Below, one piece after another: positions 5,397 to 53,545 of a DNA stretch of 53,545 nt (position 1 is the first letter of the stretch; each line of letters begins with the position of its first letter). The DNA comes from Propionibacteriaceae bacterium (GTDB lineage Bacteria; Actinomycetota; Actinomycetes; Propionibacteriales; Propionibacteriaceae). Location of the stretch: assembly GCA_021323255.1 (NCBI GenBank), contig JAJTCL010000002.1:1-53545 (forward strand), given 5' to 3'. The position numbers and the translations under genes were made by a program. The notes under the pieces are model-generated. The model searched no databases, was not told where the DNA came from, and was given only the letters and a program-made list of their open reading frames with translations.

Positions 5397-6416
5397 ATGA
5401 TTCGATCCGCAAAGGGCTCGGCGCTTGGCCGACCCCGCAAGGGCATGACCCTGACCGCCCTCGCAGCGGCTGCATTACTCGTACTGTCAGCATGTAGCGG
5501 CGGCGGCGCTCCCGAGACCCAACCAGAGAACCAGGGCGGTGGCGGTGGCGGCGGCGAGTCTGGTTACACGATCGCCATGATCACCCATGAGACGCCCGGC
5601 GATACGTTCTGGGATCGGATCAGGGCCGGGGCTGAGCAGGCGGCCAAGGACACTGGGTCGACATTGAAGTACTCAGCCGATCCCGACGCCACCAAGCAGG
5701 CCGTTCTTATACAGAACGCGATTGACTCCAAGGTCGATGGCATCGCGACCACGCTCGTCACCCCGGATGCCTTGATTCCCACGGTCCAGAAAGCCGTCCA
5801 GGCCGGAATTCCCGTGGACAGCTTCAACTCCGGCCTCGACTATTACAAGCAGGCGGGCGCGCTCACCCACTTTTCCTCCGATGAGCGACTCGCCGGTCAG
5901 GAGGCGGGCAAAAGGATGAAGGCGGCCGGCGCCGAGAAGATCCTCTGCACCATCCAACAGGCCGGGTCGGTCGCCCTTGAGGACCGCTGCGCCGGGGTTA
6001 AGGACAGCTTCCCCAACACTGAGAACCTGCAGGTGAACGGCGCCGACGACTCGGCCGTCACTTCGGCGATCCAGGCCAAGCTGAGTCAGGACAAGGACAT
6101 CAACTGGGTGATCACCCTCGGCGCACCGCAGGCCCTGGACACCCTGAAGGCCTTCGAGGGTTCCGGCAGTTCGGCGAAGGTAGGCACCTTCGACACCAAC
6201 CCGGATGCGGCGCAGGCTGTGAAGGACGGCAAGATCCAGTTTTACATCGACCAGCAGCCCTACCTGCAGGGCTACATGGCCGTCACACAGCTCTATCTCT
6301 TTAAGAAAAACGGCAATATCCTCGGTGGTGGCAAGCCGGTTCTGACCGGCCCGTCCTTCGTCGACAGCAGCAACATCGACACGATCCTGCCGTTCGTCCA
6401 GAACAACACCCGATAG
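5397..6416 (+). CDS. Sugar (probably inositol) ABC transporter substrate-binding lipoprotein
   Basis: Lipobox LSAC, ITHETPGDTFW, IDQQPYLQGY. RBS GAAAGGA. Confidence 0.9.
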   Translation: MIRSAKGSALGRPRKGMTLTALAAAALLVLSACSGGGAPETQPENQGGGGGGGESGYTIAMITHETPGDTFWDRIRAGAEQAAKDTGSTLKYSADPDATKQAVLIQNAIDSKVDGIATTLVTPDALIPTVQKAVQAGIPVDSFNSGLDYYKQAGALTHFSSDERLAGQEAGKRMKAAGAEKILCTIQQAGSVALEDRCAGVKDSFPNTENLQVNGADDSAVTSAIQAKLSQDKDINWVITLGAPQALDTLKAFEGSGSSAKVGTFDTNPDAAQAVKDGKIQFYIDQQPYLQGYMAVTQLYLFKKNGNILGGGKPVLTGPSFVDSSNIDTILPFVQNNTR

Positions 6417-6461
6417 CCTCGACACGATCCTGCCGTTCGTCCAGAACAACACCCGATAGCC
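6376..6461. repeat. Perfect 43-bp tandem duplication spanning the SBP stop codon
   Basis: TCGACACGATCCTGCCGTTCGTCCAGAACAACACCCGATAGCC at 6376-6418 and 6419-6461. Confidence 0.95.
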
Positions 6462-33147: not shown

Positions 33148-33160
33148 GTGGCACCAGGTC

Positions 33161-33318
33161 TGCTGCTCGTGCATCGCGCATGGGATCCGCCGCCGTCGTC
33201 TCTCGCAGAGGAAAGAACGGCTCGCCCCGTGTCCATGGCTCGCTCCGCTCGGAGAGGTTGGCGCTCCGGCGCCAGCGTGCCCCCGCGCGGCGGCGCGCAA
33301 TTCCCCACGCTCGCAGCA
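33161..33318. repeat. Family A element, copy 3, with an internal insert (33229-33280)
   Basis: Ends TGCTGCTCGTGCATCGCGC..GCGCAATTCCCCACGCTCGCAGCA. Insert starts GTGTCCATGGCTCGCTCCGCTCG. Confidence 0.8.
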
Positions 33319-40763: not shown

Positions 40764-40951
40764 GCTGCTCGCGCTCTGTTCGATGGCTCGCTCCGCTCGC
40801 GGCGGATCGCGCCGCGAAGTCGCCTACTTCGTCGTCGCTCCCCGACGAAAGGCGTGTCGGCTCGTTCCTCCTCAGCACGGCGACGCGCGATCCGATTTGG
40901 GTCCTCGCACCTCCTCACCACCGAAGAGCCGCGATTCTCGACGCTCGCAGC
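40764..40951. repeat. Decayed family A element (copy 4) containing a full B-type insert (40777-40894)
   Basis: Outer ends GCTGCTCGCGC / GCGATTCTCGACGCTCGCAGC. Insert colinear with 49898-50016. Confidence 0.8.
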
Positions 40952-49127: not shown

Positions 49128-49712
49128 ATGCGCGGTGCGAGGTGGGCAACCGTGCTCAGTGCGGTACTGGCCACGCCACTGCTGCTGCTCCTGATCTTCG
49201 TCAGACTCGACTATGAGCCTTTCTTCCTGCCACTGCTGACAAATCCGGACGGCACACCCACGACGCTGATGCTGGGAGTTCTGCTGAGCGTTCCAGTCGG
49301 ACTCGTGATCAATCTGCTCCCCCGCCTCCGCCGGCCAGCGGGCAGATCGGCGCGATTCGTCCCAACACCGGCACATGTCATCGTCGGACTGGCGATGCTC
49401 AGCATCGTCATGCTCACCACAGCCGAGTTTGGACTCAATGAACTCAGACCTTTTGTGGCGCCGCTCGGTCCGGCTGCATTCCTTGGCCAGGTCGCATTCC
49501 TGCTCATGGTGGTGGCCTTGCCCGTCGGCGTCTTGCTCAATCGTCTACCTCGTTTTGCCGCGGCTAGGTGGGACTGCAGCCCTCAGGGCCGGACGGTTAT
49601 TTCGGCCAATGTGATTGTCGGTGCGGTCCTGATCCTGTTGATGATCATGCTGCTCAGCGCCTTTGCCCTCGAGGCGACGGCCTGCAGCGTAGGTGTACCG
49701 AACTGCGATTGA
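49128..49712 (+). CDS. Hypothetical multi-pass membrane protein
   Basis: About five hydrophobic segments, internal repeat PVG..(I/L)N.LPR, ends ACSVGVPNCD. Confidence 0.7.
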   Translation: MRGARWATVLSAVLATPLLLLLIFVRLDYEPFFLPLLTNPDGTPTTLMLGVLLSVPVGLVINLLPRLRRPAGRSARFVPTPAHVIVGLAMLSIVMLTTAEFGLNELRPFVAPLGPAAFLGQVAFLLMVVALPVGVLLNRLPRFAAARWDCSPQGRTVISANVIVGAVLILLMIMLLSAFALEATACSVGVPNCD

Positions 49713-50126
49713 GCGGCGAGCGTCGGCAATCGCGCGCCGCCGCACGGAGCCAGGCTGGCGCGCAGCTGCCCTGGACGATCGAGCGAGCAGACATGCTTTT
49801 CGTCCGCGAGCGGGTGGGGAAGGCAGCGGCCAACAAGCGCCAGCCTCAGCGAGCGGAGCGAGCAATGCCGTGAGGAGCGAGCGGAGGCGTTTTTCTCTGT
49901 TTGATTGCTCGCTGCCGCTCGCTGCGGATCGCGCCAGGAAGCCGCCTACTTTGTCGTCGCTCACAGACGAAGAGCATGTCGGCTCGCTCCTCCGCAGCAC
50001 GGCGGCGCGCGATCCGGTGCGAGCGACGACGACGGCGGCGGATTCTCGATGTTCGCGCCGCCGATCTCCCAACAAATTGCGCGAGCGCGGAGCGAGCAAT
50101 CAAACACAGCGCGATGCGCGAGCAGC
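49711..50126. mobile_element. Family A element, copy 5 (inverted), interrupted by three B-type inserts
   Basis: Host pieces 49711-49749, 49872-49899, 50018-50045, 50108-50126 rejoin into the reverse complement of 2127-2243. Mobility is inferred. Confidence 0.8.
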
Positions 50127-50252
50127 CCTGGAATGTTGACCAGAGTCACGCGAATTCACCGGCATATTGGCGCAAATTTCATCTTCTGCGCTAGAATCTG
50201 TGGCACCTGTGTGGGGGTCACGTGGATTTTTTTTGCTCGGGGAAGGAGACCC

Positions 50253-51605
50253 ATGGCCGAACAGACGCACGTCCAGGCGTCTGAAGTGCACGAGGTTCTG
50301 GCGCGACATGTGCAGACCGATGGCATGAAGCTGGTGCTCGATTTGCGACACAGCCGAGGTAGCCGGCTGGTCGATGCTCACACCGGTGAGCGCTACCTCG
50401 ACATGTACACCTTCTTCGCCTCGGCTCCGCTTGGGGTCAATCCGCCGGGCATCGCTGACGACCCGACGTTCATGGTCGAGCTTGCCGAGATCGCGGTCAA
50501 CAAGCCGGCGAATCCGGACATGTACAGCACCGCGTACGCAGAATTCGTCGAGACCTTCGTCCGCGTGCTCGGCGATCCCGCCCTGCCCCACCTGTTCTTC
50601 ATCGAAGGTGGCGCCTTGGCCGTCGAAAACGCACTCAAGGTTGCATTTGACTGGAAGAGCCGGAAGAACGAGGCAGCCGGGCGCGATTCAAACCTGGGTA
50701 GCCAGATCATGCATCTGACGCATGCCTTTCACGGGCGCAGTGGCTACACCTTGTCCCTGACCAACACCGAACCCAACAAGACCGATCGCTTTCCCAGATT
50801 CGGCTGGCCCAGAATCGACGTGCCCGCGATCATCCATCCACTCGGCGATCATCTCGAGGAGGTCATAGCCGCCGAAGAACGCGCGCTGCAGCAGGCGGAA
50901 CGCGCGTTCGCCGCGCACCCGCACGACATAGCGGCGTTCATTGCCGAGCCGATCCAGGGCGAGGGAGGGGACAACCACATGCGAGCTGAGTTCCTGCAAG
51001 CCATGCTCACACTGGTGCACTCCCACGATGCGCTGTTCATCTTGGACGAGGTGCAGACGGGGGTCGGTACCACGGGAACCCCCTGGGCCTACCAGCAGCT
51101 GGGGATTCAGCCCGACGTCGTGGCTTTCTCCAAGAAGGCGCAGGTCGGCGGCATCATGGCTGGCGGTCGAGTCGACGAGGTCCCGGACAACGTGTTTCAG
51201 ATCTCGGGACGGATCAACTCGACCTGGGGTGGCGGGCTTGTCGACATGGTGCGGTCACGCCGGTCCCTGGAGATCATCGAGTCCGAGGGTTTGATCGAGC
51301 AGGCGGGGCCGAAAGGTGAGCAACTCGTGGCCGGACTCGAGAAGCTTCGCGACGACTCGGGGCTGATCAGCAACGTCCGCGGTCGCGGTTTGTTCGTTGC
51401 CTTTGACCTCCAAACCCGCGACGAGCGCGATGCCGTCGTCACTGATCTGCGCACGGTCGAGAGGGTCATCGTGCTGCCCTGCGGCGAGCGCTCGATCCGC
51501 TTCCGTCCGGCGCTGTCGGTGAGTCAGGATGAGATTGACGAAGCCGTCGGAGCAACTCGGCGCTCCGTGGTACGCGTCGTTAGTGAGGAGCTGCAGTACA
51601 CATGA
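50253..51605 (+). CDS. lat: L-lysine 6-transaminase
   Basis: GALAVENALK.AFDWK, AFHGRSGYT, EPIQGEGG, DEVQTG, FSKK, RINSTWGG. RBS GAAGGAG. Confidence 0.93.
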   Translation: MAEQTHVQASEVHEVLARHVQTDGMKLVLDLRHSRGSRLVDAHTGERYLDMYTFFASAPLGVNPPGIADDPTFMVELAEIAVNKPANPDMYSTAYAEFVETFVRVLGDPALPHLFFIEGGALAVENALKVAFDWKSRKNEAAGRDSNLGSQIMHLTHAFHGRSGYTLSLTNTEPNKTDRFPRFGWPRIDVPAIIHPLGDHLEEVIAAEERALQQAERAFAAHPHDIAAFIAEPIQGEGGDNHMRAEFLQAMLTLVHSHDALFILDEVQTGVGTTGTPWAYQQLGIQPDVVAFSKKAQVGGIMAGGRVDEVPDNVFQISGRINSTWGGGLVDMVRSRRSLEIIESEGLIEQAGPKGEQLVAGLEKLRDDSGLISNVRGRGLFVAFDLQTRDERDAVVTDLRTVERVIVLPCGERSIRFRPALSVSQDEIDEAVGATRRSVVRVVSEELQYT

Positions 51606-53075: not shown

Positions 53076-53545
53076 ATGGACCCCCTGGACCGTCACTTCC
53101 GCAACTCCCTCGCCGAGTTGTCAGCATCGGTGGTCGCCACGGCGACCATCGATGCTGACAACTCGGCGTGGTGGTGGGAGCTGTTCAGGGCTCAGGCGAC
53201 CAGTCGGCATCTGGATTTCGTGGCACGGGAACTGCAACGCGAGGGGCGCGGGTTCTACACCATCGGCTCATCTGGGCATGAGAGCAACGCCATGGTCGCG
53301 ATGGGTCTGCGGCATAGTGATCCGGCTTTGCTGCACTACCGCTCCGGGGCCTTTTACCTGGCTCGCGCCCATCAGGTGCCGGGAGCGACGCCCGTCCGCG
53401 ATGTGCTCCAAGGGCTGATGGGCTTGGCGGATGAGCCGATTGCCGGCGCCCGCCACAAAGTCTTCGGCCATCCCGATCTGGCTGTGATCCCGCAAACCTC
53501 GACGATCGCCTCGCATCTGCCAAGAGCGGTCGGCCTGGCAATCGC
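53076..53545 (+). CDS. TPP-dependent 2-oxoacid dehydrogenase E1-like protein (truncated by the window edge)
   Basis: Not in the ORF track. MDPLDRHF..ELFRAQATSRHLD..FYTIGSSGHE..LLHYRSGAF..RHKVFG..PQTSTIASHLPRAVG. Confidence 0.85.
   Translation, partial: MDPLDRHFRNSLAELSASVVATATIDADNSAWWWELFRAQATSRHLDFVARELQREGRGFYTIGSSGHESNAMVAMGLRHSDPALLHYRSGAFYLARAHQVPGATPVRDVLQGLMGLADEPIAGARHKVFGHPDLAVIPQTSTIASHLPRAVGLAI
53111..53168. repeat. 58-nt near-perfect palindrome (REP-like) inside the CDS
   Basis: CGCCGAGTTGTCAGCATCGGTGGTCGCC-AC-GGCGACCATCGATGCTGACAACTCGGCG, one G-T pair. Confidence 0.9.

Follow-up and report, generated by a model that had tools for sequence, protein, structure and literature searches.

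Several classes of small hairpin repeat described in bacteria resemble the family examined here. REPINs and REP-BIMEs are, like its members, intergenic hairpins of about 100 nt that lie near gene 3' ends, form tandem arrays, and are found inserted in or next to other copies (PMC3116915, PMC3333891). PMC3116915 documents tandem arrays as well as clusters that arose when REPINs inserted into others already present, and for BIMEs a model involving an ssDNA circle is proposed in PMC3333891. The MIRUs of actinobacteria, as presented in PMC3184786, are GC-rich repeats of 40–100 nt at gene ends, with tetranucleotide direct repeats, a variable tandem number and no named enzyme, and the host repeat at our focal locus similarly has a TTGA repeat at a stop codon. 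ERIC sequences and other bacterial MITEs share with the family a length of about 120 nt, an imperfectly palindromic sequence, an intergenic location and lineage-specific expansion (PMC10969869, PMC2267715). REPs of the CGTC type are said to have no dedicated transposase, and the spread of such repeats is treated as an open question in PMC3733652. The GIY-YIG enzyme SsnA cuts ssDNA a few bases from a hairpin, in variable sequence (PMC11893778). The terminal module of our family, together with the AATC that follows it, is identical to one arm of CGTC-type repeats in Alphaproteobacteria. Finally, attC sites are also folded ssDNA sites located after stop codons, and some attC-like hairpins, examined by eye, have the same mini-hairpin at the apex. 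ERIC copies with internal insertions at set positions are known, and the small dispersed repeats of cyanobacteria are a further comparison.

Nested miniature repeats are already known. What is surprising in the family reported here is subfamily-specific nesting at a single nucleotide, a one-strand fold based on G.A pairs, and the missing enzyme. In the openly accessible papers searched, no account of this family or of subfamily-specific nesting sites was found.

The focal block

The window is the whole stretch of DNA analysed, 53,545 nt in length, and corresponds to contig C19 of the source genome, G000, that of a soil actinobacterium (3.37 Mb in 483 contigs, 94 % complete). The focal block occupies positions 49711–50137. 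On its left is an ORF of 194 aa (49128–49712, forward strand) that is hydrophobic, belongs to no NCBIfam family and is present in only some relatives; on its right is the gene for L-lysine 6-transaminase (50253–51605, forward strand; TIGR03251 above cut-off). The ORF lies between a phosphomutase gene and the lysine transaminase gene, and is internally deleted in some relatives. All parts of the block are in the forward orientation except the second insert.

The initial annotation described the block as one copy of a miniature element split by three related inserts, and excision of the inserts does restore a nearly complete reverse complement of the copy at 2127–2243. The pieces at 49711–49749 (the 5' arm, up to site s1), 49872–49899 (to site s5, at the apical loop), 50018–50045 (to site s3) and 50108–50126 join to give 114 nt, which aligns to that reverse complement with 107 identities among 113 aligned bases, 6 mismatches and 3 short gaps (score 185). 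The host, subfamily H, extends to about 50137, so that its fourth piece with the tail covers 50108–50137. A plain host is found at the same locus in G127/L037 and in L292. A 4-bp direct repeat, TTGA, borders the host at 49709–49712, where it holds the stop codon of the upstream membrane-protein ORF, and at 50136–50139; the empty locus L293 has one TTGA.

Insert 1 (49750–49871) is a full-length copy of subfamily A located at s1, with the target GA kept on its right, and a contig from run X2 bridges it. Its mini-hairpin (49849–49863) consists of GC-GA-GC, a GGA loop and GC-GA-GC, followed by AAT and a variable tail of 5–7 nt. Insert 2 (49900–50017, reverse strand) is a variant of subfamily C that is inverted at s5. 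It is 98 % identical to the inverted C at C115, where the host carries an A variant different from the focal A, and it has a mini-hairpin with a 4-nt GGCA loop at 49907–49922. Insert 3 is made up of the 5' end of an E element at s3 (50046–50066), the start of a short F element nested in E (50067–50086), and the 3' end of E (50087–50107), the last consisting of half a mini-hairpin, AAT and a 7-nt tail. This was seen by alignment with the full E+F copies at C296 and C105, and relative to the copy at C105 about 113 nt is missing between the repeated mini-hairpin arms, leaving a hybrid. Insert 3 is consequently a deletion relic of F nested in E, and the number of insertions in the block is four rather than three.

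Sequence matches place the inserts in the same genome-wide family as the host, and, as originally noted, two lie in one orientation and one is inverted; inserts 1 and 3 are oriented as the host, and insert 2 is the inverted one. Two further features had been read differently. A 16-bp inverted repeat (49898–49913/50091–50106), attributed to the leaders of two inserts, is present, but these are conserved 3' ends on the folding strand; the repeat arises trivially because two copies share a 3' end in opposite orientation, and is not a terminal repeat of the transposon type. Likewise, the TG thought to be the only possible duplication is indeed found on both sides of insert 2, as a 2-bp TG/CA repeat at 49898–49899 and 50018–50019, but the 4-bp TTGA flanks the host when the window is compared with the empty allele L293. 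The terminal motif shared by the copies occurs 103 times in the genome with up to 2 mismatches and once in a dinucleotide shuffle, and is therefore not due to chance.

Assembly and empty sites

Mis-assembly of separate repeat copies is unlikely, because unitigs from several studies tile the junctions: unitigs from runs X1, X4, X2, X6 and X8, which represent five studies, overlap across every junction with 0–3 differences. None spans the whole block, however, at three of the junctions one side is covered by fewer than 31 letters, and the source sample itself may be among the runs. The left flank, host and A junction are covered by an X2 unitig (49600–49861), the end of A and the end of C by an X4 unitig (49838–49929), the start of C by X1, X4 and X8 unitigs (to 50045), the E junction by an X6 unitig (50003–50062), and the right flank by an X4 unitig (50087–50500).

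Relatives with fewer inserts were also found, as orthologous loci that are empty, occupied by a plain host or differently filled. Among the 30 transaminase-gene loci fetched, the upstream gene is present and the element absent in G048, G102 and G130, while G127 has an uninterrupted host, with a different tail, at the same stop codon. Three of the four metagenome matches are empty and one has a plain host. The locus L293, from a near-identical strain, is nearly identical to the window and contains a single TTGA where the window has TTGA, the block and TTGA; the 427-bp block is absent.

Composition and distribution of the family

In G000, iterative BLAST identified 152 loci, totalling 23 kb or 0.7 % of the genome. 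The repeats are small and non-coding, and fall into subfamilies H (the host), A, B, D, C, E and a short, two-hairpin F. At least five subfamilies differ mainly in a 10-bp stem, yet target different nucleotides. The exact terminal motif was found in 48 of 126 genomes of the genus and is abundant in about 35 of these genomes, and the reversed control gave 0 matches. Diverged families with the same architecture and covarying stems are present in other members of the genus, including closed genomes; two copies in the closed genome G032 are ordinary. Records bearing the family are labelled Propionibacteriaceae or Actinomycetota soil MAGs. A pattern search of 398 genomes of the class outside the genus did not find the central hairpin, and no copies were found in the phages, plasmids and viral contigs searched. 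Coverage of the element by the RNA run X15 is too fragmentary to be informative.

Nesting at fixed sites

A genome-wide comparison of nested and free copies, suggested at the outset, showed that 44 of the 45 copies of A, B, D and E in G000 are nested, in a family that makes up 0.7 % of the genome or about 5.7 % of its non-coding DNA. All 16 copies of A are at s1, 9 of 10 copies of B are at s2, all 4 copies of D are at the 3' end of C, and 11 copies of E are at s3 with 4 more at the end of a second C type (assignments in G000 were pattern-based, with three copies assigned by reading the sequences). In contrast to these, the 14 C copies include 7 that are free, 3 in tandem and 4 nested. In relatives, 16 of 18 A, 17 of 18 B, 22 of 23 E and 5 of 9 D are nested, and D forms free arrays in L244. 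The self-targeting proposed earlier is thus stronger than was claimed, in that four subfamilies are almost never free and each uses a single position, but it is not a matter of one family entering its own copies. It is a hierarchy, in which H and C colonize ordinary intergenic DNA, and A, B, D, E and a C variant parasitize them at subfamily-specific sites. Such copies may act as safe places to land, as was originally suggested.

Insertion into orthologous hosts recurs independently, as orthologous loci in relatives are empty, hold a plain host or are differently filled. The C115 locus has a plain H in G102, H+B in G048, H+A in G103, and H+A+C with a tandem H+E+F in G000. A plain H in G048 or G102 corresponds to H+A in G000 at C310, C19:33160 and C435, and to H+B at C30 and C161. 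Rare host bases located 5–11 nt from the junction agree with the local orthologue. Insertions of A, B and E are present in hosts of both subtypes, and the arms of these hosts are concordant, although for A the diagnostic bases are 3–8 nt from the junction. Filled hosts are no more mosaic than others, with discordant arms in 2 of 26 filled and 6 of 61 unfilled hosts (p=1.0). Many orthologues of G000 loci that appear empty look like deletions; the hosts are old and also decay.

Two other explanations of the filled sites were considered and set aside. Movement of a composite as one unit finds no support: at C19 and C115 the C copies are 98 % alike, but the A copies beside them differ, and the C115 orthologue is a plain host. 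Long co-conversion was suggested by a first count (4/31), but not by the fuller parse given above.

A predicted fold on one strand

Standard DNA folding without GA terms gave no significant z-scores (between -1.4 and 0.2). When a term for tandem GA pairs was added, in a simple hairpin score devised for this analysis, z rose from 1.6 to 6.2 for the host and from -1.0 to 3.4 for insert 2 (25 dinucleotide shuffles each), and the degraded focal A reached only 1.3. The GA strand outscores its complement in 65 of the 70 copies scored, which were the first 14 of each of five subfamilies. In the Watson-Crick stems there are 165 compensatory cells, and G.T exceeds A.C by 147 to 53 when one mis-registered stem is left out and by 150 to 109 when that stem is included. 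Copies that are within 4 % of one another in the paired core differ by 9–36 % in the loop, 23–39 % in the bulge and 33–65 % in the tail. We infer that the conserved feature is a fold on one DNA strand, and the GA-rich strand is predicted to form a rod closed by sheared tandem G.A pairs that ends in a GNA mini-hairpin.

The ends of the inserts have the form GC-GA-GC, a GNA loop and GC-GA-GC. The G and the A of the mini-hairpin loop are invariant in 127 of 127 copies, while all four nucleotides occur at the middle base; 4-nt GNNA loops are also found, and a covarying variant of the arms was seen 6 times. The GNA mini-hairpin is a DNA-type motif. The review in PMC13037366 describes GCGNAGC/GCGNNAGC hairpins as far more stable in DNA than in RNA, attributes mini-hairpin formation to GNA triplets only, and reports that the GNA mini-hairpin is resistant to SSB and serves as a mark of ssDNA origins and of the N4 promoter.

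Loop length differs among C copies. All 7 inverted nested copies that were read (49907–49922 in the window, and C115, C55, C90, L213, L002 and L077) have a 4-nt mini-hairpin loop, and free C copies have mostly 3-nt loops. The possibility of a hammerhead-like core was examined by eye and rejected, as the invariant GAAA is missing.

Junctions, tails and genomic placement

Inserts have a common layout, namely 0–2 nt, a long stem, the mini-hairpin, AAT and a tail of 6–7 nt. In arrays the tail joins directly to the stem of the next copy, so that the unit acts as would a circle made of the core and 7 nt. Unfilled hosts keep the target GA (85/101 at the A site and 64/66 at the B site), while nested A and B mostly replace it with other bases. 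Some copies retain GA on one side, which is the right side at the focal A but the left at C310 and C150.

Among 92 hosts, the host ends show a modest excess of short direct repeats 7–10 nt past the stem; at offset 7, short junction homologies were found in 15 of 92 against 6.2 expected, counts that include orthologous duplicates. The 4-bp direct repeat at a gene end, present at the focal host, does not seem to be general among these 92. Many loci are close to the end of a gene, with 20 of the 32 scored no more than 25 nt from a stop codon. There is no sense-strand bias relative to flanking genes (14:11), an early indication of such a bias (26:12) having disappeared with stricter gene calls. 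Transposons that move as ssDNA usually show replication-strand bias, and here, by a weak proxy, there was none (33:32).

Search for a mobilizing enzyme

The Y1 transposase profile PF01797 had no match in any of 126 genomes of the genus, 68 of which are at least 90 % complete; the control for this profile matched in 6/14. Integron integrase (TIGR02249) did not exceed the cut-off in 14 genomes and the Y2 transposase (PF04986) was not found in 5, but no control genome exceeded the cut-off or matched, respectively, either. RVT_1 was not found in G000, the one genome searched for it. Six IS110 matches are present in G000. Their flanks, two of which were read from the wrong ORF, look unlike the element ends by eye, and the contigs that contain them carry no element.

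Small GIY-YIG genes resembling Ssn, read at 14 loci and at 8 more, are flanked by another repeat or by none, and were not found in several element-rich genomes. None of the 152 loci matches the degenerate SRM motif. G000 contains 55 copies of the Ssn-type flanking repeat without an assembled gene, and gaps in a MAG can therefore hide such genes. The flanks of Ssn-like genes (L267–L280 and L353; for example, L275 from G048) have inverted clusters of a 19–20-nt repeat unlike the published CGTC/NTS motif.

No element was found within about 2 kb of 18 of the 20 tyrosine recombinase matches and 3 of the 4 serine recombinase matches checked. Genomes of the element-rich clade have 19–30 tyrosine recombinase matches, compared with 4–12 in six other members of the genus; of the G000 matches, the ones checked mostly adjoin tRNA genes and show no linkage to the repeats. 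DUF559/AbiEi-like genes were also considered and rejected, as their flanks differ and only 1 of 10 has an element, beside a fragment. No recurring family of neighbouring genes was found in G000, at 75 motif positions of G103 or in other members, and clustering of the neighbours returned only orthologous housekeeping genes.

Comparison with known systems

The family works like orphan repeats of the REPIN/MIRU type, and lacks the features that define REPIN/RAYT, Ssn/SRM, classical MITE and attC systems. Unlike REPIN/RAYT systems, it is not accompanied by a Y1 transposase in the 126 genomes of the genus and does not consist of two inverted REPs; the consensus ends are asymmetric, and both a tetranucleotide tag of the GTAG type and a conserved C|T cut are lacking. 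Each subfamily here nests at one fixed position, while REPIN clusters, in the published text consulted, are described without obvious organization. The units are rods of 110–125 nt, compared with 20–40 nt for CGTC-type REPs, and the Ssn system differs in that none of the 152 loci fits the SRM and the Ssn homologues of the genus are flanked by a different repeat. With regard to MIRUs, the central hairpin of our family is absent from the 398 other genomes of the class, the 4-bp repeat does not seem to be general, and ordered nesting is not mentioned for MIRUs in the text of PMC3184786 consulted. The family also differs from ERIC and MITEs in having asymmetric ends with neither conserved terminal inverted repeats nor a TA duplication, in folding on one strand only, and in having inserts that are relatives of the host; moreover, the terminal stem of H varies with compensation and there is no duplication of fixed length, as distinct from MITEs of the DDE type. 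In contrast to attC sites, no R or L boxes were seen in the family, and the upstream gene exists without the element.

How the elements may move

The focal block is best read as a stack in which small hairpin repeats entered one host repeat four times independently, with every subfamily at its fixed position, and we consider the chances about even that the repeats move as folded ssDNA units that are cut and joined by an enzyme acting in trans. The predicted rod would be bound by a nuclease or transferase that cuts poorly conserved sequence about 10 nt past the mini-hairpin. The unit released would run from stem to tail, one core plus a linker of 6–7 nt, probably as a circle, and would be inserted in a folded host, where the outer stem of the insert would determine the position. 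Host repair would then leave differences of 0–3 nt at the junctions. Were the reaction to take place at the end of a copy itself, it would produce head-to-tail arrays, and recombination between repeated arms could erode a stack, as may have occurred in insert 3. The address is probably in the outer stem, given that A and D share a spacer and use different sites. No guide sequence in a common register that would explain the choice of site was found, as the 6–8-nt target matches of each subfamily are in differing registers. Several results weigh against this model. Most A and B insertions have other bases in place of the target GA, an outcome not expected of clean HUH strand transfer. The search for an enzyme or a linked gene family gave none, the weak proxy showed no replication-strand bias, standard folding gave no significant z-scores and the focal A scored low even with GA terms; nor was a circle or excision product seen in the assembled contigs.

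An alternative that we regard as unlikely is that each nested subfamily arose once and then spread among hosts by short-patch gene conversion, a form of homing in which there is no site-reading enzyme and the junction bases come from the founder. It would account for the single site per subfamily, the near absence of free copies and the same GA replacement in most of them. However, host markers as near to the junction as 3–10 nt agree with the local orthologue or with the distal arm and not with a donor, which leaves too little homology for conversion of the RecA type. The junctions also vary, in that the focal A has kept GA on its right side and C310 and C150 have kept it on the left, and C inserts both freely and at s5 while D forms the free arrays in L244. 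The replacement of usually two target bases, together with an A/C-rich, variable 3' tail and the location of many copies just past stop codons (20/32 within 25 nt), would in turn fit structured RNAs copied back by target-primed reverse transcription, a process expected to give small target losses and an A-rich variable tail. This we consider improbable, as RVT_1 is absent from G000, the only genome searched, the window has no Rfam match, there is no sense-strand bias, and the GNA and GGYA loops are DNA-type.

Movement of the units in trans by an IS110-family recombinase and its bridge RNA, via double-stranded circles with a 2-nt core, would fit the 2-bp repeat at the inverted C and the resemblance of the arrays to circle junctions. 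G000 has its six IS110 matches, and IS110 elements that target REP stem-loops are reported in PMC3184786 and bioRxiv 10.64898/2026.03.19.712850. Against this, the flanks of the G000 matches are unlike the element ends by eye, and IS110-bearing contigs have no element. Donors of bridge-RNA systems need a conserved junction sequence, but in this family conservation is among the lowest at the donor junction and the tail is hypervariable. The fold of GA on one strand would also be left unexplained, and we give this explanation little credence. Equally hard to credit is the absence of any dedicated enzyme, with replication switching templates onto stable ssDNA hairpins and host repair finishing the process. 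It is consistent with the lack of a linked gene in the genomes examined and with the modest enrichment of short junction homologies at host ends (15/92 against 6.2 expected at offset 7, orthologous duplicates included). Nucleotide-exact, subfamily-specific sites and the fixed distance of 10 nt from the mini-hairpin instead point to a measuring protein.

If the elements do move as folded ssDNA units, they may represent an ssDNA mobility system not described before, a tentative suggestion that we hold to be possible but doubtful. In such a system, G.A-folded elements of about 120 nt would carry a code in the outer stem that directs them to one nucleotide in another element, and the enzyme would belong to none of the Y1, Ssn, IS110, integron and reverse-transcriptase families. 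The insertion reaction would then be re-addressable, and other orphan actinobacterial repeats, such as MIRUs, might spread in the same way. The exact empty and filled sites, the at least five subfamilies and a G.A-dependent fold missed by standard programs constrain the mechanism and make it testable, and could reveal a new site-specific ssDNA enzyme. Scoring of tandem GA pairs may also expose hidden structure in other bacterial repeats.

Related repeats and other copies in the window

In relatives, as many as six copies are arrayed head to tail, and some arrays consist of the 26-nt terminal module alone (L226, L244 and L166); both kinds of array could serve as VNTR markers. Copies of F in G000 (C1:6143, C151, C221, C378 and C441) and of a related family in other members (L322, L328 and L340) are located at stop/start overlaps with an apparent ATGA repeat, as in MIRUs, and some short F or related-family copies carry a nested H-like element. 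Inspection by eye of the loci L153, L174, L180, L199 and L149 showed the 19-mer with the tandem-GA/GNA mini-hairpin in two settings in other phyla. It caps attC-like sites in MAGs of Gemmatimonadaceae and others, and in Alphaproteobacteria and Chloroflexus it makes up an arm of REP dimers of the CGTC type.

The window, for which an Rfam search gave no match, also contains copies of the family on the reverse strand. Uninterrupted H copies are at 2127–2243 (the reference copy, which G048 shares at the orthologous locus) and 415–534 (identified as a family match). At 33160–33318, a host has an internally deleted A at s1, and the G102 orthologue is a plain H. A C copy followed by a remnant of a host 3' end is at 40765–40896. 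Two other repeats were noted in the window, a perfect tandem duplication of 43 bp where an ORF ends (6376–6461) and a 31-bp inverted repeat with a 2-nt spacer and 94 % complementarity (53108–53171).
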